A stretch of 64,000 nt of DNA from Fimicolochytrium jonesii (taxonomy: Eukaryota): positions 1,488,001-1,552,000 of the forward strand of contig NW_026515668.1 of the NCBI RefSeq assembly GCF_025526975.1, in the 5' to 3' direction. Positions 7,037 through 45,826 of the stretch are shown here, one piece after another (within the stretch, counting starts at the first letter, position 1; every line of letters begins with the position of its first letter). The notes beneath the pieces are model-generated. The model searched no databases. It was given only the letters and a program-made list of their open reading frames with translations, and was not told where the DNA came from. A program made the position numbers and the translations under genes.

Positions 7037-7749
7037 ATTTGAGGGTATCTGCTTTGTGGAAAGCGTGGTGCTGTCTATTGTTTTGCTGTTTGACGGTCGG
7101 TTTCCAGAGAGCTATTTAGGACAGCGGTGAAGTGAGTGACAAGGCCGGAGATGGGGCTCCAGTAGACGCTGTGCAGTGGAGGAACTCACCTGTTCGAGAC
7201 AGCAGCCTATCAGCTACGAAAGGTGCGACAGATATATGTCGGTGCGTATGAGTTTCTTTCTCGAAGCGGACGAAGGGATGCTCTGAGACGTATTTAAACG
7301 AAGGCAGCTGTCTGTCTATTGATAAGCGATCGCTTGGCGGGGTTGGGGGGCAAAACAAGCGAGGAAGGAAAAGTGGAGGCCAAATGCCTTTCGTGTGGGC
7401 AAGCGTGGGTTAGTTATCCGTGACGTGCAATTTCAAATAGCCGCCGACCGTGTTTCTTAACCGTGGTGGTGGAGCAGCCATGACGCATTTCAGTCTTCCT
7501 CACGAAACGCGCTTGCGAATCTGAGCTCTCACCTAAGGACCAAACTGGGCTCTAGAAGCTATGCCGTTAAGTTTACTGGGACACTTTGAGATAACTACAA
7601 AGTGCTGCGGTGGTTCGGTCGCTTGTGGACTGCTCCGTCCACCTCAAAGCAGACGGCTGTGTTGGATAATGCGTAGGAATACCCCGATCGTGCTCCCAAG
7701 GAGTCCTTCTTTTCTTGACCGCGAAGTGGGAGTCGTGCAGTTGTGGTAA

Positions 7750-7986
7750 GGGTGCAGTTTAGTGGGCTCTCGAATTTAAGGTACCCGGTTAAGGGTTCCC
7801 ATTTAAAAAATATATTAATTTTCAACAAATTACCGACCCCCCCTAACCCCCACCCTCCCTAACCCCCACCTAACCCTAACCCTAATCCTAACCAGGGGGC
7901 CGGTGACTTACCCTAACCTCAACCTAACCTTAAGTCACTTTAAGTTCACGCGTAACTTAAATTCGAAAACCCACTAAACTGCACCC
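7750..7986. mobile_element. MITE-like element with ~30-bp TIRs and internal telomere-like repeats
   Basis: Left end GGGTGCAGTTTAGTGGGCTCTCGAATTTAAG versus reverse complement of the right end GGGTGCAGTTTAGTGGGTTTTCGAATTTAAG. Flanked by TAA and TAG. Internal CCTAAC/CCCTAA repeats at ~7841-7930. Confidence 0.8.
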
Positions 7987-8695
7987 TAGCCGCAGTTGTG
8001 GCTAGCAATTGGGTCACAGAGATATGTTACGTTTCCGTGCGACTTGAATGTGGACCACGGAAACATGGCTGCCCGGCCAGAAGTGACAGCCAGAGTAGCA
8101 ATGGCAGGGGGAAGAAACGATAGCGCAACAACGAGCTCGTACTGCTTTGATGTCTGTCCGTCTGTTGTGCCAACCCCTCTTCCACCCACGTAACCGTCTG
8201 GTCCCCTCTCCGCATCGAAAATGGCTTGCCCCCAGAGCCCCGTTGCATAATACGGCACGTTTACGACTGACTGGCTGACTGACTACTGTAGCGAATTCAT
8301 AGTCGCGCTATGAAGTTCGAGCTACCCTGTTTCTCCCTCTCTGATCTCAGCTTGGTCGCTTGCATGCCATATATTGTAGCATCCTCTCCGGTGTTTCCAG
8401 TGAGTGACAATGATGAAAGGTAGCTTGAACGCCTCGGGGTAGGTTGCCGAGGCTTGAGGAGAAACCCAAGTTGCCCAAGCTGCACATGCATGGGTAATGT
8501 ACTGTACTGTACTGTATGTACGTGTACATATCATGGCGTTTGCTTACGTGATTCTAAATGAAGGAGATCTGGCGATGGACAGCCCGATATGATACGGGAA
8601 TACCCTGCCCAACCTCGCCTTCAGGCATACCCGTTGGCTCAGCTATACCATATACCCTTATTACACGGCACAAGCGGATCGTCCCTATAATCGCA

Positions 8696-30071: not shown

Positions 30072-30710
30072 ATTTTGCCATAGAAAGTTCGGTGCCTGTT
30101 TATGTATATGCGTATCGAGTGTATTGTGTAGCGCAGGTTGTTGTGCAAGAGCACTTGCTTTGATTGGTCTCCTCTGAGCATGCGATGGAGGTCTCCTATC
30201 AAGATGGTGCATATGGGGACATCAGACTTATTAAAGCCTGCGCAACGCTCACGTGATGAAACCCACGTGATGGAACGCTCTCTCGGACGCTCTTTTGGCC
30301 ACCTGTACCGTAACAGTACACGGTACTACTGTAATTGCATTCTGACAACACTGGCGCTTTGGCACAGTTGAATACTGCTCTCCTTGCAGACGTGCAGGTA
30401 GCAAGTTCAATTCCCACTCCCAGACAACTTCTTTGTTTGTTCAGATTATGACCCCTGTCGCGCTAGGCGCGGCATGGTAACTACTGTTGCGCTCGGCGCT
30501 TCGTGGGTGTTAACTGAACAGCACAACTAAGTATCGCAACAGAAAGCAACCAAAATGCGCCTCAACCAATCCTCCAGTCCTTACCCGCTCTCAAACAGCT
30601 CGATGCACGACCATTTTTGCTCTGCCTCACGCTCCTTTTCGTTTTATTCCTCCCGTTTCACACAGCTCCATCTCTACGGGGCTCTAGGGAAACCACCAAC
30701 ATCGCTCATT

Positions 30711-30762
30711 GCCGAGCGTGAAGGGCGTAAGGCCGAGCGTGAAGGCTGTAAGGCCGAGCGTC
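30711..30762. repeat. ~2.5 x 21-bp tandem repeat (GCCGAGCGTGAAGG..GTAAG)
   Basis: gccgagcgtgaagggcgtaag gccgagcgtgaaggctgtaag gccgagcgt. Confidence 0.8.
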
Positions 30763-30808
30763 AACAACCCTAACGGGCTTTGCTTCCGTCTATTCTCCGC
30801 CACGCTGT

Positions 30809-30880
30809 CGGGGGAACGATTTTCGCCCCACGCTGTACTAGTCAGCCCTCAATGGATTTTGGGGAGAAAATCGTCCCCCG
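30809..30880. repeat. ~21-bp inverted repeat (hairpin with ~29-nt loop)
   Basis: CGGGGGAACGATTTTCGCCCCA versus reverse complement of 30860-30880, CGGGGGACGATTTTCTCCCCA. Confidence 0.8.
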
Positions 30881-31079
30881 CACGTCAAACCGGAACGTGC
30901 CTGGGCACCGTGCCCCGTCTATTCTCTGTGTAGGCGCCGGATGTTGGAACGTCGCCGCGGCTTTGACACTCTCATGGTGATTTGTCTGGGGAATGGAGTG
31001 TACGTGAGTTAGTTGGGGTGAAATAGATAGCAGGCAGCGTGGGCATGGGAGTGGGAGTGGGTTGGTAGAATGGGGCCAG

Positions 31080-31194
31080 CGCGAGTGCCCAAATCCAGGC
31101 TGCACCTCAAGCGATTGCGGGAGTCCAGAGAGCGTCCCGAGAGCGTCCCGCGAGTGCCCAAATCCAGGCTGCACCTCAAGCAATTGCGGGAGTC
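31080..31194. repeat. Direct duplication of a ~46-bp unit at 69-bp spacing
   Basis: CGCGAGTGCCCAAATCCAGGCTGCACCTCAAGC(G/A)ATTGCGGGAGTC occurs twice. Confidence 0.85.
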
Positions 31195-32160
31195 GAGAGC
31201 GGTTGTGCTCAACATGGGCCGCAAGATCAGCGTATAGCAAGCGCGCCCAGGCAGCGCATCCCATGCAGGTCGACCTCCCGCAAGCGGCGGTCGTGCTCAG
31301 CATGGGCCGCGTGCCCAGGCGGTCAACACAGGCGCCCACAGCTACACCGCAGCCACTCACCTTGTCGGCGCTGAGCGTGCTCAGAGAGTGCTCTGCGTGA
31401 GTTGCCGGGCTTGAGTTGGAAGGAGGTGGGCGTTGGCCAGGGGGATGAGGGGGCTGTCGTCCGCTGCGAGCGCTTGACGTTTCCATGCTCAGAGTGTGCT
31501 CTGCATGAGTTGCGTGAGCTGCGAGCGCTTGATGTTTTGTGTGAGAGGAGGAGAGTGTGGTCTTGGAGATGCGGCGATCAGCAGTGGACAAGCCAAAATC
31601 AACCTCAGAAGCTACCCTAGCTGCCCAGCTAGCTGCCCTGGAAGCTACCCCACATCCAAAGAACCTGGGGATCCTCACTCTACCCGTCCTCACTCTTAGC
31701 GCCCCTCATGTCTTGATTGCACCTCATCATGGCCCCCAATTACATACCAACTGTTATGATCTCGACAACGGAGGCGGAAGCGAAGTAGAGAAGTCAGGGC
31801 GAGAGTGATAGGCGACCAGAGATTGTATTGGCGAAACAAGAAACAAGGACTAGAACAGGAGATGAGAAGAACTGGTGTTGATCTGCTGGGGAGGAAGGGA
31901 ATGGACGAAGAGAGGCCGGCTATTTATAGATAGGCAACCCAGCAGATCAGAGAACAACAACAACAAGAGGGGACTGGGGGGGCGCCAGCTATGCTCCTAG
32001 AGCGTGCGTGGCGAGCGTAGAGAGCATTGCTACAGCTGCTGGCTATGGGGAAGTAGTGGGGGGTGTGGAGAAGCCGAGGGGGGATTGGCGAAATGAGAGG
32101 AGAGAGGAGGAGTGGCGATATTGCGGGAGGATTGGCGAAATGAGATGAGAGAGGGGGAGT

Positions 32161-32236
32161 GGCATTGACATTGACATTGACACTGACATTGACACTGACA
32201 TTGGCGTTTGACATTTGGCGGTTGACATTGGCGGCT
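32161..32236. repeat. Degenerate (CATTGA/CACTGA)n hexamer array grading into TTGGCGG(T/C)TG units
   Basis: cattgacattgacattgacactgacattgacactgacattggcg..., just upstream of the Fanzor gene. Confidence 0.75.
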
Positions 32237-32452
32237 GTCAGTGGGTAAGCTTATGGTATGGGCGCGTCATCCATAACACCAACGCAATTGTGAGCAGTAA
32301 GCATCCCCGTTTTCGCCTTCAACCGCCGCCAGGTAACAACCGCAATTCCTCACCGTTCTCAGCATCATTACCACAGCACTGACACAAGTTCTTTGACACA
32401 CAGCTATCACGGCAATCACCTGCAACACCTGTCTCGGCACAGCACAGCCATC

Positions 32453-35262
32453 ATGCCATCACACCAGGCGCTCCAGGGGCACCTGTGGTGTGGCATCTTT
32501 ACTGGAGCAACCACACCACGGCGGAAGAGGAGGAAGGTTGCTCCGGTTACCCCACGATTGCCCATACGTCTGCCAGCCACACCATTGCAATCCCTGCGAT
32601 TCGAGCTCCCACCTTCTGTCCAGCGCCACTTGCCCCAAGCAATTGCAGACATGGTTGGCAAGAGTTCCGGTGATGAAGACGGGCAGCAGCACCAGCAGCG
32701 AGGGCTTTCACCAGTGGACAGGGGTCTGCAGCGTCCGTTGAACCTCTCCGCTCCCATCCCTTTCCTATTTCCCAGCACACCGGGTGGATCCCTGGTGCTT
32801 GAACCCCCGCCACCACCACCCGCTCAACGACCCCAGCAGACACATGTAAGCACCAAGGTTTCGCTTCACCGAATCCATAATCAAAATCAAGTTCAAAGGG
32901 AGCGCCTGACAACATTCATCGGCAACGTTCACATCCTTGCGCGCCACACCACCTTCTTTCTCAAGTACTACCTTGGTGAGTTTTCGAGGTACACTACACT
33001 GTATATTTCCCATGAAACAATGCCCTGCCTACTATGTCTGTCCACCACAGCTGATCATCCTCTACACAACTTCCCGGACATCACTGACAAGCACATCAGT
33101 GTGATGTTTGAGCTGCTCAACAATCCACGCTACAACGGCAATCCGGTCATTGCGCAAGAGTTGCGTCCATGGGTTCAAGACTACTGTAATGTTCACGGAT
33201 TCGCCCCTATCCGCATGCAACATTGCCAACAGACCGCAGCGTACACGGCTTCAAGCATCTTCACAAACCTCAAAGTCAACGTACAAGAACATTTCATTCA
33301 AATGCTTCTGCGCTATGTCAATGAAAGGCTTGGTTTGAAGCAAGTGGTACTGCATCTCCATAGAGCTGGGGTCAACCGAGCGCAGCGGCGACACTATTAT
33401 CAGTGTGTCCATCAGTTTACAAAGTATGCGACATTTGAAGAGTTTCCAACCGAAGAAGAGCTTGCGCGCCTCACACAACTTGAGCGGACCGTCCTCGACA
33501 AGTTATGGGCTCTGTTTCCTCCCCAGGATGAGCCGCTTGCATACAGCCTTGCGGTGGACGCAATGCCATATTTAGGTGAGTTAGTATATTCCCCCCCCCC
33601 CCCCCCCCGCGGTGCGCTCTTTTGTCTAATCATGGTCGACACCTGCCTCATCACAGGTGCCTATTGTGAGCTCTCACGCCTCTATGAGCGCCGTGGAATG
33701 CGGCTGTTTGCCGCTATCCCGCTGCGCAAATCTTGAATCCAGTCATCTGTTCGGATCGACACGCTGATCCTAGCCACCCATATCCTGGGCTTGAGCCGAC
33801 GTCGCATGGGGACTTTCACCGATCAACGCAAGCAGGAGCTGTGGGGGCAGTTTCTCAACGTGAATGTAAGTCTCTATCCTTCTGCGCTTATTTCAATCAC
33901 CTCGCTGAATGACGCATTGCAGGACAAGGTCTTCAAGCATCGAAAGAAGCTTGGTCTTAAATTTGATGGATCAATCAGCACAAACGGGTATTCCGCTACC
34001 ATCCACTTCAAGAAGCCAGGGCTCAAGTATGGGCATCGGGCCCGGAAGTGCAGCAAGGCCCAAATGCGGGAAGAAGTCAAGCAGCTGTATTTTGAGCACC
34101 ACATCGCCGAACGACGGGAGGCTCCAAACATCGTCAGCATTGATCCGGGCAAGCGTGACCTCTTGTTCTGTCGAGACATCAAGAAGGAGCGGCCATTTAG
34201 GTACGTTTCAGTTGATTACTACTGCCCTGCTGTCCCCGCTGTCCCTCCCCGCTGTCCCCGCTGTCCCCGCTGTCGCCGCTACCCCGATCAACGCCTCCCT
34301 CAACCCTGTCCCCGTCCCCATCCCCACCATCCCCCCCGTCACCATCCCCACCATCCCCTTTGTTCGACATTCCGTTGCCGCGTTCTCACAATGCACCACC
34401 CCATACCAGATACACATCCAATCAACGGGCAGTCGAGACAAAGTCTCCGTACTTTCGAAGAGACATGACAAGCGAAAGATCAATGCCGGCATTGCTGAGA
34501 TGGAATCACATATTCCGTCGCACAAGCGCATGAACATCGAGGCGTTCTCAGCGTTCATTGTGGATCACGTACATGCGGGTATGATGTATCATGCATTGTC
34601 TTCAAATTTGGTAACATGTGGGCTGACATCTATATCCCAGATCCCGCCCTGGATGAGTTTTACCAGGATGAGATTCACGTCGCTCGCAGATTCAAGGCGT
34701 TCTCACTGCGGCAAAAGTCTGAGAGCAAGCTCATCAAAAACATGCGACGCCTGTATGGAAAGCATTTTTCGGTCATCTTGGGTGATTGGAGCGACGCTGG
34801 AAAAACCATGCGCTTTCAGGAGTCATCAAAGACCAAAGGGTGAGTGACCATCATTGTTTTTCATGTATTATAATACGCTCACTCATGGGGGGAAACAGAT
34901 TCCGCACACTCTTTGCGAGAAACGGCATTCCATGCTACTTGCTGGATGAGTATCGAACGTTGTCCGTGTGCCCACACTGCCATGGGCGTGTGAGGAAAAA
35001 CATCCGACGCCGGCTGTCACCTCGGCCGTGGCAAGCTCAAAAGGGAAGAATGGAATTCGTCCATGGATTGGTGGGTTGCCCCAACCCCGAATGTATCAAC
35101 CAAGACTGGACGCCATTTGAGATTCCTGGAAGACGACCACTACGACTACGGATGAAAGTGCACAATCGGGACATCCTAAGCACCAAGAATTTCGTCTCGA
35201 TTGTGCGTTCGGTGGTGTTTGGCGATGGCCGCAGACCAGACGCATTCTCCCGTAACCGGTAG
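32453..35262 (+). pseudogene. Fanzor (Fanzor1-like, TnpB-derived RNA-guided endonuclease), six introns, disrupted
   Basis: Spliced product contains PLRKS*IQSSVRIDT, ELWGQFLN, FDGSISTNGYS, RuvC-I VSIDPGKRDLL, YTSNQR..ET, ILGDWS, RuvC-II LLDEYRT with CPHC, HGLVGCPNPEC, and RuvC-III HNRDILSTKNF. Introns at 32976-33050, 33576-33656, 33866-33922, 34201-34409, 34579-34640 and 34840-34898. TGA at 33734-33736 and a frameshift at ~34456. Confidence 0.88.
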
Positions 35263-35410
35263 TCTAGAATTTTCACCCTATTCCATTTTCCGTGGTGGTT
35301 ATCTGCCATCCACATCATGGTACCTCTGCCTGAGGCGTCGCCGATGATGGCAACTTGTATGGATAATGTCTGAGGTCACCGCATCAATTGGCAGGTTCAC
35401 GATTACCGTT
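35263..35410 (+). ncRNA. Candidate Fanzor omegaRNA scaffold plus guide
   Basis: Lies directly 3' of the Fanzor stop. Stem-loops at 35292-35313 (GTGGTGG...CCATCCAC) and 35313-35349 (CATCATGG...CCTC/GAGG...CCGATGATG). Boundaries are inferred. Confidence 0.5.
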
Positions 35411-35731
35411 ACCCATCATATTGACTTATGTTAAGATATATGGAGGAGTACCAAGAGGGGGACGAGGGATGGGATGGGATGCTATCACCGAGTAAAAGGG
35501 ATGGGTGACAGACAACAAACAAGGGAACATAGGGCTATAAGACAAGAAAATGGAGGAGCCTAATAAACAGGGGGCGCCGAAAGAGGAGCTCGGGTAGCTA
35601 AATGTTTCAGATGATGATTCGGGAAAGGGTTGGGAGAGCGTGGGGATGGTTGCAATTTCGGAAGGCCAAGAAACGAGAGGCCGTGTGCTTCTTGAGATTG
35701 TTCGTCTGGTAAACTATCAGAAGGAGTCCCT

Positions 35732-38700
35732 TTAACGCGGCTTCCTGCTCCGAGGCACCTTGATCTGCCGCCCGCGAGCCGCGACCGTCGTACTAGGGCC
35801 GATATTGAACAGACTTCCGCCTTCAGGGGCCCCAATGGGGTTTGCCGGTGCAGATGGTGCAGCACCGAAAGTGAATGCACCCGTGGACGGACTAGCAGGC
35901 TGCTGGCCAAACTGGAACGGTGTATTACCAAACGTCGGTGTTCCCGGTTGCGGCGTCCCGGCTCCGCCGGCTCCGTTGAAGGTGAAACTGAATCCGCCGG
36001 TACCAGGTGCAGCTGTAGGCGTACTAGGGGCCGGCTGGCCTCCGAAATTGAATGCACCGGCAGCCGCACCAAAGGACGGCGCTGCGGAAGTTGCACCGAA
36101 TTGGGGTGGCACTGCAGCGGCCGACCCTGCGGGTTTTGCTCCAAAGGTGAACCCACCACCGCTTGGGGCTGGCGCGGCAGCTCCGAAATTGAATGCAGTT
36201 GGTGCTGGAGCGGCCGGTGCAGGGTTAGAGGCGGGCGCGCTGTTTCCGAAGTTAAACATGGACGGTGCCTGTGCGGAAGTCGAGGTGGGAGCGGCAGGTG
36301 CACTGGCTCCAAAGTTGAACGAAGGTGCAGCGGGTGTCGAAGTCGCAGGAGCGCCTGCCCCAAAGTTAAGCGAAGCAGGTGCAGAGGCCCCCATTGAAGC
36401 AGGTGCTGCAGCGCCAAAATTGAAACCTTGCGTGGAGGCGGCACCCGGAGCAGAGGTAGGAGCTCCGAACGCCGGAGCGGCAGGCTTGGCTCCGAATGTG
36501 AACGCCGGAGCAGCGCTCGGAGTAGATGTTCCGATATTCGATGCCCCAAACCCAGGGAAACTCTGACTGGACGCGGGTTGGGATGAAGTAGACGCTCCGC
36601 TGGACGCCGGGGTTCCGAATGTAAACGTAGACGGTGTTGAAGTTCCAGGGGCGGCGGCCGGTGCACCGAATGTGAAAGATTGTGCCGGAGTCGATGTGGA
36701 CGTGGAAGTAGTTGCGTTTGAGGCCGGAGCTCCAAACTGGAACGCAGGAGCGGATGAAGTGGCAGGTACCGTGTCCGTCTTGAAACCTGACGCCGGAGGT
36801 GTGCCAAAGATCATCGAGCTGGACCCACCGGATGGGACACCAAACTTGGCATCATTTGAGTTCGCATTTGTTGCAGGAGCACCGAATTTGGGTGGTTCTA
36901 ACGCAGCAGTCTGACCATTGGGCGCCGTTGGCCCCGCGCCAAATGTGAGTGGAGCGGAGCCGGTGGAAGCCGAACTGCCGAAAGTAAACGTCGTTGGAGC
37001 GCCTGTACCGGTTGCAGCAGGCTTGGACGCTTCCGTTGCGGTGTTGGATGGCACGCTGGTGCCGAAGCTTGGGAAAGCCGGCTTTGCGGTCGTATCGGCA
37101 GCACTTCCAGGAGTCGACGCGCTGCTCGCTGCCAGGGCTCCAAATGTGAATGTTGGAGGAGCGGATGTAGGCGCCGCATCGGCCTTGGGCGCGGTGAATC
37201 CAGCACTTGAGGGAGCTGGGGTAACCACTGACGAGTTGAAGTTGAACGGTGCTGCAGTACTGGTACCCGCCGTAGTAGTTGAAGTAGATGTTGGCGTTGA
37301 CCCAAACGCAAACGTTGGCTTTGCAGAGGCATTGACTGAGGTGATGCCTCCCGCAGGCGCGGCGGAGACCACACTCGGCGCGGACGTTGCTCCAAACAAT
37401 GACGCTCCTTGCGCTCCCGCTCCGAAGAGTGCAGTGGGAGGTTTTGTGGATGTCGACTCAAGGGTAGATTCCGCCACTCCGAATAACGGCACTTTCGTTT
37501 CGGAACCTGTGGATGCACCAGCAGGCGTTGATTGGGCGGCGGAATGGAAAACAAACGAAGGCGTTGACGAAGGCTGCGCATCCGCCGATTTTTCGCTCTG
37601 TGGAGACTACAGGAAAGGTAAAAGACGCAAGTCAGAATAATATACTGTGAACAAATGAAGCAATCCGCAACACCCACCTGCTGCGCTGGCGGTTTGAATG
37701 CAAACCCGGAGGAGGCTGCGTTTGTTTGCGGCGGCTGTTCTGCGCGTTTTTGTTCCTCCGCCTGCTTTCTTGCCTGCTCATCCAGCTGGGCTTTTTGCTG
37801 CCGTGCTAGCTCTGCCTCCTCTCTCCGCTCATCGTCAATCTTCCGTTGCTCGGCCGCCCTTCTTTGTTCTTCCGCCATTCGCAGTCCATTCACTCGGTTG
37901 TTTTCCTCTACCACTTTCCGCTCCTCCGCTTCTCGTTGATCACGATACAGCTTTTCCGTATTCTCCAGCAGATTTTTCGCCATTTGATCCGTTTTATCGT
38001 GGTCAACAGGTGGCATTCGAGAAATCAGCCATCTGAGATCTTTGTTGGCGTTCGGGCGGCTAGATTTCAGTTTGATGCGCGACCGAGGAGTGACTTGACG
38101 CTGAGGTGCAGAGGATCTTCGCAATGGGGTGCGAGTCACTACGCTCTCTTCATACTCGATCTGTCGACGTTTGACTGCCACAGGCTGCGAGCTTGGGTCG
38201 AATCTTTCGTACTCATCGTCATCGTCCCTCCCTCTTTTGTTTCCAGCTAAGACGCTCTCATCTACTGTCAACTGGCTGACAGGCATTCGCTTCGGCGTAC
38301 CGGGTGCCAGCGTTGGAAGACGGTTCAATCGCCGACTGGCAGATGTGATCCAACCGTCCTCAGGTCTGAGCTGCTCCATGTACCGCAGTTGGCGTTCGGT
38401 GGGGGTGTTCGGATTGTAGGGCGTCACATTTCGGGTAGGAGTGTGTTGAGCAGGGGTGAACAGTCGCACTGGAGTGTTCGGTTGACGGAAGTCGGGTTGT
38501 GGTCGGATGTTCGGTTGCTGTGTGGGGGACCGGTTATACCGCGGAGAAGGGGCTTTAAACTGTCGCTCCTCTACAGGGGTCGGTGGTACCTAGAAGATGC
38601 AAGCAAAGAAAACGTAAGCTGTTGAACGGCCGGAAGAAAGAGGCAGACGAAGAGAGACGAAGGGGGGCGGTTGAAGTAACCTGCAAAAGGATCTCCAGGA

Positions 38701-40611: not shown

Positions 40612-41674
40612 ATGTTAAAACAATAGGGCGTAGAGCTTGATAGCTATACAGTAGTTGGTGATGGATCGAGGTTAACGGTTGCATTAGATCTTATGTGTAT
40701 TTATGAAGAATATGGATGGAAGAGGGTCGGCATAACGGGAATGCTAGTTGTGATGGTGCTCGGACAAATCAAGGAGCATGGAAGGGGGAAAGTTCCTGAT
40801 GCCTGCACGATGCTGCCCAGTTTCCGGCGGTCTAGACGGTATGGCGCTCACTCTCTCCCGTTTCAGACTCTTTCAGCAACAGCCACTCAACCTGTACAGT
40901 ACGTCCTTAACTCAGCGGACATGCTAGGAATCGTTTGGCTGTTCCTTCTGTGTCAGATGCGAGAAGTCTCGAATCCCTCCGACCGACATCGACATGGAAG
41001 CGTAGGCATGCGATATCACGATGGAGAGGTCTTGCGGTGATTCCGACGATGGCTGCCTTCATGTTTATGACATGGACACAGTCCCATACTGCCCATCCTT
41101 TTCCTGTCCTCTGTTCATGCGCCGCAAGACCTAGGGAGGTACGTTTTTCCTCTCTGAATTTAAGGACGGACCATCTCTTGCTTTCCAGGCTCTTTCCATC
41201 GCAGATCACGGCATGTTTTGGACTGGCAAGTATGTCTGCTTCGTACAATCGCTGATGGACACCCGTCTCTTTTCCTTCCCGCAGGCCTCAAGAATGGTAG
41301 GGATGCAATCCGAACAGAGGAACGTTCTCTCTCAAAAGCATGCGCAAGTTGGATCTTTCCTTTTCCTTTGCAGATCCGCGCCGAACATGGACGGGACGAC
41401 AGGTACGTGCATTTGTGGCTTCAATCTCATATTCGCGTCACATTCAAAAGTATTGGAGAGGGGTATAAACGGTTGGCCAGTCGCGGTCAGGGCATCAGCG
41501 CGTCTGTCTACTCGGTAAGGGGAAGAAAAACGAGAAAAGTATGAGAGAACCATGTGAGTGCTTCAGGCTATGTGAGTGTCTACGCCGCACAATATGCTTC
41601 TACGCGCGCAGTGTGATCTATGCTAGAGGAGTGCAGATAAACTCAATTATGAGGAACGTCCTGCCGCACTCAGC

Positions 41675-43276: not shown

Positions 43277-44390
43277 CTTGGCGATGCGTTTCGGCGTCTT
43301 GGTGAGCACTGTGGCAGCCTCCGTTGCTGGACGTGGAGGGACCTAGGAGTGAAAGTTCCTCCCATATTCTCAGGCCGGTCTTGTATTTAGAGCTTTGCTC
43401 TTCCGACGCTGGTGTGCACTACTGGGGAGCGCTCTCTCTTTTCAAGTATTTTGGGGGAGAGGACACGCGGTTTGTGAGACCCAAACGTCCGCCTGCGAGG
43501 CCTCGAGACCAGCGACGCGGCGGGAGTCGGTCCAAATGCGACAGCTTCTCCTGCCTCATCCATCCTTCCGGATCCCGGATGTATACATATGTCCGTTGTT
43601 CATTTGCCGCCAGTCCGGCCGACGCTCGGCGGTTCTTGTTTTTTTCGTCTGCATTTGACGGTACAGGATCCATCGGACGCGCGGGAGGCGGCCGGGAGGG
43701 AGTAGAGTCCTCAGTCGACCGACCGATCGGAATTGGGGGTTGTTGAAGCTCTCTCGGAAGGGAAGCCGGCTGCCGGTGGATGGGGAGAAGGTCAAACCTT
43801 CTCACTTGCACAACAGTCGCGGACTGAGGTCCAACAGATCGTGGGGTAAATTCACATGAGGTGTGACTTTGTCCGAATGCTCGCACACAACGCGTCGGAG
43901 GGCGGCCTCGCGTCGCGTGAAGTTTCCCAACGGGTGAGAGTGGGCGTTTTTCTTTGGTCGACCAAGTGAGAGAGGCAGCTGCAACGGGCGGCTATTTCAT
44001 TCGGTCGGTTGACATGAAGGTGTCGCACCAATTCGATTTGCGTTACCCGATGCGCCGACAAGAGACTTTTAGTCTGGTCTTCAGTTTCATGCACACCACC
44101 AGCAACGACGGCATCCCTCGTTCACCTCAACTCCTCCGATGTCGATAGATACACTGTTGCGATGCAGCGCTCAAACACGTCGAGATATCGAATCCTGCAC
44201 GCCAGGTCGTGGTGCATCCCTGAATTTGAAAACAAATATCTAGGGGAATATTTGGTGCGGTATTGGAAGATGCAGATGCGGGATGTCCTCAGGCATCGGT
44301 AGCAAGTCGTCCCTCTCCGGACCTGGTTCGTTGGCGAAATGGAACATGGCAGCCAGACATGCTTTCATGGTCAAGCTGCACTGTTTTTGC

Positions 44391-44656
44391 TATAGATCAG
44401 GACAGCATACCCGACCCAACTTGACCGTCGTAGCTTGAAGGGCATTACCGCGTCGCCGGGGTTATAACTGCTGCGGAATGACAGCTTTGCAGAGCTGTCT
44501 GGGTTGTCTCTGGCTGGGTTAGCAACGGCGGCGAAGTGTTTCAAGCTCTGTTTGTCAACAGCGACGCGTCTAAAGCCTATATATATACAAGAGGACAAAC
44601 AAGAGGACGCCAACTACCACTGTTAAGTCGGGTCGGGTATGCTGTCCTGATCTATA
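44391..44656. mobile_element. MITE-like element with 35-bp inverted repeats bounded by TA(TA)
   Basis: TATAGATCAGGACAGCATACCCGACCCAACTTGAC versus reverse complement of 44622-44656, TATAGATCAGGACAGCATACCCGACCCGACTTAAC (2 mismatches). Confidence 0.8.
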
Positions 44657-45826
44657 CCATGCCCCACTTGTATTTTGATAACGGGTCTGCCATGGTGGTG
44701 CAGGACTATTGCAAAGAACACCCTGCACTTTGCAGATGCACATATGCACGCATATCGCTCTTGCCGCCAAGACTTTCCGGGGCTCTCATCAAATATCGAC
44801 GACGGTGAATCCGTCGACTCTCGAGTCTCGACCCCCGTTTGGGATAGATCATTGACATCCAATTTGTGCATCAATCTGCACCGAACTCCTAGAGAAACAA
44901 AGCCATTCCGGCCCATTCGTCCATCACGGGGCCTCCACTTTGTGACAGGTGGGTGACTTGGAAAATAAGCGTCGCGTGATGCCTGTTGTGGTCGCTCGCC
45001 GCGTACAAAGGGGTTCATATCGATTTGAACGAGACGTCACTTTCGTGGCTTTTCCGGGTGATGTCGTTTTGGCTGCATGCCCAGACTCCCGAGAATCGTC
45101 TCGCGTAAGTCGAGACAGAGCCCATTTCGGCGTAGCGCCGTTAGCATCGGGTCTACGGACCCTTGACGAGACGACGACTCGAAGCTTGTTCGCCGGCGTT
45201 AGTGGAATCCTCTGCTACAAATCGATGGACCACAAGTTCCACAACTCGGTCTATTTGGGCAAATGCAATCTGCGGCTTGACAATTGGGAAGTCAATTTGG
45301 GGCGTTACACCAATCTGACGCGTCATGAACGCGCGCGGCGAGAACTGAGATTTGGGAAATGGCACACCACCCTCTCACATTTCACCACCTTCCTCCGACC
45401 ACACAAACGTCCTGAACGCTGGTGTGGGTGGTCGGAGATCATTGCGGCTTGCTGAGTTGGAAGGGCTTGGTGGCTCACTCTCACAACCGTTGTCGACAGG
45501 ATGAATGGGAGTTTGTGGGGAGATGATCGGATATCCCGCCCCATGGAAAGGAACGTCGTTCGACGGGAATGTATAAATACGCTGGCGAGCAGCCAGCGCC
45601 GAGGCCTCCGGCTTGAATACTGCAAGCATTGTGTTGGCGCCTATCATCCATACCCTTTTTTTCTAGCTCGAACCAAGCAGTGAAGAGCGAAAAGCAGGAC
45701 CTCATAGATAGATTTGCACACACTCGCGCAGACACTCACATCAAGTGTTGAGAAGAAACAGACAACATTGACAGGACGCAACCAGGCAGTATTACTTCTC
45801 GGATAACATCCCGTACCTCATAGCAA

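Follow-up and report, generated by a model that had tools for sequence, protein, structure and literature searches.

The question raised by this locus, which lies on the forward strand of a 64,000-nucleotide stretch of the chytrid Fimicolochytrium jonesii genome (the window; contig NW_026515668.1), is whether a gene scattered over several open reading frames encodes a Fanzor, a eukaryotic RNA-guided nuclease, and whether that gene is still alive. The locus (32453..35262) is a 2.8-kb gene with six introns, an intron density of 2.6 per kb (Table 1). An earlier interpretation made from the letters alone (the sequence-only reading) had named a series of motifs, and all of them are found where it placed them: IDPG, DEYRT, CPHC (from 34969), HGLVGCPNPEC (from 35062), NRD (at Asp codon 35170), PLRK and IDT, FDGSISTNG, and PRRKRRK. 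A seventh intron at the donor-like GTAAGC at 32846 was ruled out, the sequence downstream of it aligning to the start of the WED domain of SpuFz1. The neighboring genes are fungal host genes with introns, so the Fanzor gene sits in a eukaryotic genome; a promoter and terminator scan, with bacterial models, gave nothing.

Table 1. Features of the Fanzor locus and its flanks, in window positions; counts in the notes refer to predicted gene models of paralogs spanning the feature.
Feature	Position	Strand	Notes
Upstream shared sequence	31244..31400	+	paralog P0019 also has it, upstream of its Fanzor ATG
Solo-LTR-like insert	31752..31956	.	TGT...ACA ends; 4/5 bases of a possible target duplication
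Exon 1	32453..32975	+	Pro/Gln-rich extension of ~130 aa at the N-terminus; WED start and first REC helix after it
NLS-like PRRKRRK	32516..32536	+	in exon 1 extension; putative function
Intron 1	32976..33050	+	75 nt, phase 1, in frame, stop-free; junction clean in 15/18
Exon 2	33051..33575	+	REC domain; matches SpuFz1 chain 466-636, E 3.7e-21
Intron 2	33576..33656	+	81 nt, phase 1, in frame, stop-free, long C run; clean in 17/19
Exon 3	33657..33865	+	WED motifs PLRKS and VRIDT
Premature TGA	33734..33736	+	family majority Arg; 20/23 read through cleanly
Intron 3	33866..33922	+	57 nt, phase 0, in frame, stop-free; clean in 24/30
Exon 4	33923..34200	+	WED FDGSISTNG and RuvC-I IDPG
Exon 4 residues	34142 (Asp codon), 34148 (Gly codon)		SpuFz1 D383, N385
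Intron 4	34201..34409	+	209 nt, phase 2, C-rich 9-nt tandem repeats; clean in 32/36
Exon 5	34410..34578	+	bears the frameshift and a private Arg-to-Pro change (34447-34449)
One-base frameshift	34471..34472	+	33/37 continuous here
Intron 5	34579..34640	+	62 nt; clean in 43/45
Exon 6	34641..34839	+	RuvC helices and LGDWS; SpuFz1 chain 857-917, E 2.6e-17
Intron 6	34840..34898	+	59 nt; clean in 45/46
Exon 7	34899..35262	+	RuvC-II Glu, zinc finger, RuvC-III Asp, stop codon
Exon 7 residues	34948 (Glu codon), 35170 (Asp codon)		SpuFz1 E541, D606
Zinc finger Cys codons	34969, 34978, 35077, 35092	+	in exon 7
Weak omega-RNA scaffold candidate	35289..35359	+	TCC, then hairpin 35292-35313

The identity of the gene was established by comparison with SpuFz1 from Spizellomyces punctatus. 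In a search of solved structures that took in the exons apart from the second half (40 aa) of exon 5, five exon pieces each match SpuFz1 (8gkh_P) best and in order, with E-values of 1.5e-27, 3.7e-21, 5.7e-19, 2.6e-17, and 1.3e-26 along the gene, well above anything chance would give, and the alignment gaps coincide with introns (chain residues 636/638 at intron 2 and 917/919 at intron 6). The 8gkh_P chain is a 1032-residue fusion of the 638-residue protein, and 394 was subtracted to obtain SpuFz1 numbering. After subtraction D34142, E34948, and D35170 align with D383, E541, and D606, the catalytic residues of SpuFz1 (PMC11423790), so that by alignment the D-E-D triad and the zinc finger are in register with those of SpuFz1. 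Fanzors are defined by a DPG motif in RuvC-I and by an alternative Glu located six residues ahead of the zinc finger (PMC10711439); both are present, as IDPG and DEYRTLSVCPHC. The TDG motif of the WED domain reads TNG in the window and is a variant within the family (24 N and 6 D among 31 cells). Pfam searches with the exons and with full paralogs return no match at threshold, the best relevant one being Cas12f1-like_TNB (E 0.076-0.18); Pfam alone thus fails to recognize the protein, which is why the paralogs are labeled 'uncharacterized'.

The sequence-only reading had also proposed a structure search, for which the natural full-length paralog P0040 (KAI8821362.1, 761 aa) was folded with a 29-row alignment in place of the broken window copy. 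P0040 is 86% identical to the window copy when the latter is read with X bridging both of its breaks (755 aa), and its sequence matches SpuFz1 with E 4.6e-149. The model has a mean pLDDT of 76.6, with residues 1-129 mostly under 50. The top three Foldseek matches are SpuFz1, PpFz1, and GtFz1 (target TM 0.86, 0.66, and 0.63), with VIA-align Z scores of 38.7, 34.9, and 23.8, respectively, compared with 8.1 for the Fanzor2 structure 9b0l and at most 11.5 for Cas12 and TnpB proteins; the rmsd to SpuFz1 is 4.6 over 577 residues. On homology and fold, with all three solved Fanzor1 proteins ranking first, the protein is grouped with Fanzor1 and not Fanzor2. This assignment by the sequence-only reading therefore stands, but the mark on which it had relied, a catalytic Glu beside the zinc finger, does not distinguish Fanzor1, as it also occurs in Fanzor2 and pro-Fanzor TnpBs (PMC10711439). 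On aligned sequence and modeled fold, the locus belongs to the SpuFz1 group and is, as had been proposed, a Fanzor1 from a chytrid that has an intron set of its own; the exon matches, the fold of the paralog, and the family clade described next all bear on this.

The family to which the locus belongs comprises 67 records at ≥60% identity, among 124 collected; 65 of the 67 are from F. jonesii and are distributed over 32 contigs of different length. At least 46 copies exist, since 45 other records as well as the window cover the column of the RuvC-II Glu. Paralog P0056 is identical to the window locus over the last 213 aa of P0056. Most family records are fragments; coverage of the core reaches 99% in P0040 and 96% in P0041, and 'intact' here means an open predicted frame in gene models. 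The triad columns are nearly invariant in the paralogs (Asp in 36/37, Glu in 45/45, Asp in 40/40). A quick IQ-TREE run on the window copy together with 22 outgroup proteins and 21 of the other 66 records, using SH-aLRT support only and a midpoint root, unites the 22 family rows in a single clade (SH-aLRT 98), most of the end branches being shorter than 0.1; the tree has several long branches, and its deep forks do not single out a sister group. Among named relatives the highest identity, 55% over 250 aa, is to one from Gaertneriomyces. No relatives were found in viral contigs, where none of the 12 and 26 pattern matches was confirmed, and the single match in prokaryotic genomes, 35% identical and on a 3.3-kb MAG contig, is probably eukaryotic contamination.

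The flanks were examined for the ends of a mobile element and for its RNA. In the 86 stop-to-stop frames of at least 95 aa between about 22,000 and 46,000, or about 10 kb on either side, no Pfam family of transposases or other mobile elements is matched, and neither is any Rep or helicase family, in agreement with the earlier observation that no recognizable transposase lies alongside. A weak tblastn match at 41247-41384 (E 0.005, with stops inside) was taken as chance. Counts of terminal inverted repeats between the flanks are at or below those of shuffled controls, and comparison of 30072-32452 with 35263-35731 gives no inverted repeat with as many as 15 matches in 20 nt or 20 in 30 nt, which may reflect decay or a left end farther away. 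Because no terminal inverted repeat was found, copy number and dispersal are the only grounds on which the family is taken for a mobile element. The sequence shared with the upstream region of P0019 (tblastn E 2e-7 for 31244-31330, the match on to 31400 being made by eye) is probably part of the element, which would then reach at least 1.2 kb to the left of the ATG. The insert at 31752..31956 is considered a putative LTR from its ends only; a relative of it cuts short the gene model of P0008, another paralog, beyond residue 337. On the right, TCC and the hairpin that follows it resemble the start of the SpuFz1 scaffold, and by analogy a weak 75-nt candidate might end at the TA at 35358-35359, its z of -2.35 being the best among 31 windows, each 70 nt long, and not significant. 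Five longer folds give z between -0.86 and 0.57, and an Rfam scan returns two chance-level matches only. Two further candidates were rejected: a 9-mer common to the 3' flanks of the window and of metagenome locus L004 arises in 183 of 2000 shuffles, and the 3' flank has two matches of 18 bases beyond which there is no similarity.

At the active site, the RuvC-I motif is DPG in 35/37 family cells, with Gly at the position of SpuFz1 N385. SpuFz1 itself has DPN, in which N385 binds Mg, and the N385A substitution abolishes cleavage (PMC13434818); DPN is also found in 19 of the 22 outgroup rows of the tree. DPG is nevertheless the usual Fanzor motif (PMC10711439), and on the alignment the Gly is most simply regarded as a return to the common state. 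A division into DPG and DPN as special catalytic classes was considered and rejected; the discussion in PMC11423790 concerns the third position only. Mapping by eye indicates that the TAM contacts Q129, Q130, R291, and Y345 of SpuFz1 are kept in the family, as are WED residues H21 and K25, that the TAM contact N133 is replaced by Ala, and that the REC loop around R96 is shorter, with Gly in 19/21 cells and Arg in the window. An altered TAM is plausible from these substitutions. The N-terminal extension is disordered in the model and was found only in F. jonesii records (15 matches). Its motif occurs as PRRKRRKV in 15/67 family records, most of the others lacking the N-terminus; Spu-like proteins also bear an N-terminal basic motif, and a nuclear localization signal is predicted in about 60% of Fanzors (PMC10530073).

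Taken together, these results lead us to conclude with considerable confidence that the window holds a pseudogene of a six-intron Fanzor1 from a multi-copy chytrid family, the intact relatives of which are likely to be DNA endonucleases guided by RNA, like SpuFz1. By analogy with known systems, an intact copy would be transcribed and spliced, and the basic N-terminal motif would bring the protein into the nucleus. There it would bind an omega-RNA derived from the right end of the element and the flanking DNA, and would cut target DNA beside a TAM that, given the contacts kept and the Ala at N133, is probably CATA-like yet different. Repair of the break from a sister copy could restore or spread the element, the enzyme that mobilizes it presumably being encoded at another site and acting in trans. 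CpG methylation of the copies by the host is likely, and deamination would then kill them, as the TGA of the window at an Arg position may exemplify.

Two other readings of the family's function were weighed, neither of which we think probable. According to the first, the family is a SpuFz1 relative that has departed from the Spu-1 lifestyle, having gained six introns and a disordered Pro/Gln arm of 130 aa, lost recognizable terminal repeats, exchanged for Gly the Asn (N385) on which SpuFz1 depends for cleavage, and spread to dozens of sites by an undescribed route as an RNA-guided DNA binder or weak cutter and not as a homing nuclease. The second, given marginally less credence, sees in the family a DNA binder guided by RNA that cuts little if at all, in which Gly at the N385 position weakens the site and the Pro/Gln arm is regulatory. 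The Mg-binding role of N385, the loss of cleavage in N385A, the contrast between DPN in the outgroup and DPG in the family, and the family-specific, disordered extension all agree with a binder. However, PpFz1 and GtFz1, the other two solved Fanzor1 proteins, both have DPG, and GtFz1 cleaves in vitro (PMC11423790); outgroup protein P0086 also has DPG, the D-E-D triad is nearly invariant, and most copies are decaying, a poor fit to a maintained host function. The endonuclease reading is thus preferred for the intact relatives.

The state of the window copy is a separate matter. The sequence-only reading held that splicing alone would yield one protein, and this is not the case: removal of the introns leaves a coding sequence of 2267 nt, a length that 3 does not divide; a TGA interrupts the frame at 33734, and exon 5 contains a change of frame that the paralogs locate as one base missing near 34471. 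The copy is a pseudogene. Translation would end at residue 375, before all RuvC motifs, so the window copy could at most supply guide RNA; ghost loci supplying guide RNA occur in S. punctatus (PMC10432273). The stop stands where the family has Arg and is a CpG-type change, the kind that dominates the family. In columns where the window agrees with the family majority, with poorly matching stretches masked and P0056 excluded, the paralogs depart from the window's CGN-coded Arg in 174 of 1687 cells (to Gln, Cys, His, or Trp in 154 of these) and from its AGR-coded Arg in 1 of 385 (Fisher p 3e-15, the cells not being independent); non-CpG columns differ at 4.1%. These counts come from gene models, in which stops are invisible. 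As read from the alignment, change across the copies matches the pattern of methyl-CpG deamination. In Spizellomyces 5mC is confined to transposons (PMC12695648), and from the protein changes and this other genus it is likely that the F. jonesii copies are methylated at CpG.

Sequencing or assembly errors could in principle account for the stop and the frameshift in a copy that is intact in the living fungus, and there are only two frame lesions, one a single-base indel, in keeping with such errors. We nonetheless hold this to be very unlikely, as the stop is of the dominant CpG type, the copy carries further private changes, including Pro in place of the Arg seen in 33/33 paralog cells at the position of SpuFz1 omega-RNA contact R414, and the fragmentary state of most family records fits real decay. 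The pseudogene reading is therefore retained.

Six GT-AG introns are present as the sequence-only reading had set out, on the evidence of the alignment gaps relative to SpuFz1 and of recurrent junctions in paralog gene models, which are predictions. The least probable of all the alternatives, that the six inserts are inert insertions in a dead gene that gene models merely route around, agrees with the canonical CTRAY branch motif lying close to the acceptor in only two of six and with three inserts being in frame and stop-free, but all six start GTRHG and end YAG, their removal restores register with the intronless SpuFz1, and the junctions recur in from 15/18 to 45/46 paralog models, so that the family multiplied while carrying them. 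SpuFz1 is encoded by a single intronless ORF (PMC3627910, PMC10432273). A metagenome comparison found 37 loci, of which 13 were examined; among the five closest (L001-L005, 36-46% identical), L001-L004 continue through all six intron positions without insertion, and L005 is uninterrupted at five, with a short break near intron 5. In L001, L002, and L005 (the last in its top-scoring solution only) a putative phase-1 intron lies at residue 273, one that is absent in the F. jonesii family. These alignments are most simply explained if all six introns arose on the lineage leading to the F. jonesii family. Intron-containing Fanzors have been described previously (PMC10530073, PMC3627910), and intron gain in Fanzors is known, up to about 9.6 per kb (PMC10530073).

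The known picture of Fanzor function is unchanged by this family, and the window copy itself is dead. The family is nevertheless a natural ortholog, about 44% identical, of the best-engineered Fanzor1, from which it differs at Mg ligand N385 and TAM contact N133, and the apparently complete natural copy KAI8821362.1 allows a test of a new TAM and of the DPN/DPG difference in the active site. It also gives a tidy example of how a nuclease gene on a mobile element apparently took up six introns within one chytrid order and then wore down at CpG sites.

The family is not hidden from the literature, being already catalogued in print as raw hits. Table S2 of Yoon et al. 2023 (PMC10711439) contains 33 F. 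jonesii rows of the same family among about 2500 raw Fanzor HMM hits. The rows examined (15 distinct) are C-terminal fragments, several of which, such as KAI8816250.1, were also recovered here, and give no introns, ends, or RNA; the accessions of the table include neither the model of the window locus nor the full-length paralog (a positive control was found), and the main text does not name Fimicolochytrium jonesii. F. jonesii was not found in two supplementary files of PMC10530073, where Spizellomyces was not found either, or in the readable supplements of PMC10432273 (nine files, one PDF being unreadable). In the full-text literature, with subscription papers and bioRxiv supplements outside its scope, a search for Fimicolochytrium or Chytridiomycota with Fanzor gave, among the papers listed, a single one, a giant-virus preprint mentioning Fanzor only in a reference, and a search for Fanzor1 with intron gain returned none.

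Among characterized systems the closest is SpuFz1 with its element Spu-1 (PDB 8gkh, 9ceu-9cez; PMC10432273, PMC3627910, PMC11423790), which has the same Fanzor1 domain order and fold; P0040 is 42-45% identical to SpuFz1 over the structural alignment. Both are multi-copy, without an adjoining transposase, and have LTR-type insertions in or near copies. The differences lie in the gene and in the element: six introns compared with a single ORF; an N-terminal extension of ~130 aa compared with ~20 aa; terminal inverted repeats of 30-33 bp in Spu-1, together with a duplicated TA target and a left-hand CATA, compared with no such repeats found at the F. jonesii locus; an element that seems longer on the left than the about 2.1 kb of Spu-1; and copies that mostly look broken, whereas 9/17 Spu-1 copies are intact (PMC3627910). 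By analogy, the window locus is thus a Fanzor1 of a kind expected to work like SpuFz1, but not a Spu-1 element. The Fanzor1 genes of Chlamydomonas reinhardtii (CRe-1,2,3 and CrFNuc; PMC3627910, PMC10530073) are likewise multi-exon, in a multi-copy element without a Spu-1-type inverted repeat, but they belong to another host, have 5 or 10 exons, and are associated with Helitron2, whereas no Helitron features are established in F. jonesii. PpFz1 (Parasitella parasitica) and GtFz1 (Guillardia theta) share the Fanzor1 fold and the DPG motif with the F. jonesii family, although they are only 15-27% identical to its protein, PpFz1 has a long insertion in RuvC, and GtFz1 has Asn in RuvC-III where the F. 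jonesii family has Asp.

Each of the first three introns of the Fanzor gene in the window (32976–33050, 33576–33656 and 33866–33922) has a length that is a multiple of three and contains no in-frame stop, while the lengths of introns 4–6 are all 3n+2. Judged from the sequence, the reading frame would stay open if introns 1–3 were retained.

Features surrounding the gene in the window
Feature	Position	Strand	Remarks
MITE-like element 1	44388–44659		~270 bp; 46-nt inverted arms, 89% complementary
MITE-like element 2	7742–7994		~250 bp; 46-nt inverted arms, 85% complementary
Solo-LTR-like piece	31752–31956		related sequence truncates paralog P0008
Two 51-nt direct repeats	31080–31199		one frame reads ECPNPGCTSS
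More short repeats	30711–30761 and 31199–31513
FG-repeat nucleoporin-like gene	35732–38589	-	label from sequence pattern

The solo-LTR-like piece upstream of the gene, together with its relative in P0008, indicates that this LTR family struck Fanzor copies at least twice. The peptide read from the 51-nt repeats recalls the Fanzor zinc-finger motif GCPNPEC; a Pfam search of that reading returned a weak zf-TAZ match alone (E 0.08). Downstream, the nucleoporin-like gene lies tail to tail with the Fanzor, its end ∼470 bp from the Fanzor stop, and a Pfam search of it gave no match. Comparison of both MITE-like elements, the second of which contains CCCTAA-type repeats, with the Fanzor flanks revealed no similarity.

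Among other Fanzor records, the N-terminus of KAI8823798.1 resembles by eye an OTU-type protease domain. This 1334-aa protein is a Chytriomyces Fanzor hit in row 1813 of Table S2 of Yoon et al. (2023; PMC10711439). A Fanzor1 with 35% identity lies on a 3.3-kb contig within a Bacteroidota MAG (L040, JAZKHM010000081.1), where the contig is probably eukaryotic contamination.

The relative at the metagenomic locus L004 appears to have one intron at most, and identity reaches 46% in its best segment. A 13-bp inverted match (L004:324–336 versus L004:3241–3253) may be due to chance; its right arm ends 76 nt beyond the aligned ORF end and is followed by TA, an arrangement resembling that of SpuFz1.

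Three SpuFz1-group metagenomic loci have in common a candidate phase-1 intron (L001:647, L002:387 and L005:498) at one REC position, corresponding to residue 273 of the full-length paralog P0040, and the GC content of the Fanzors carrying it differs. Possibly the same candidate occurs in L003 near 719. In contrast to L001, L002 and L005, SpuFz1 lacks this candidate intron, as does the F. jonesii family.
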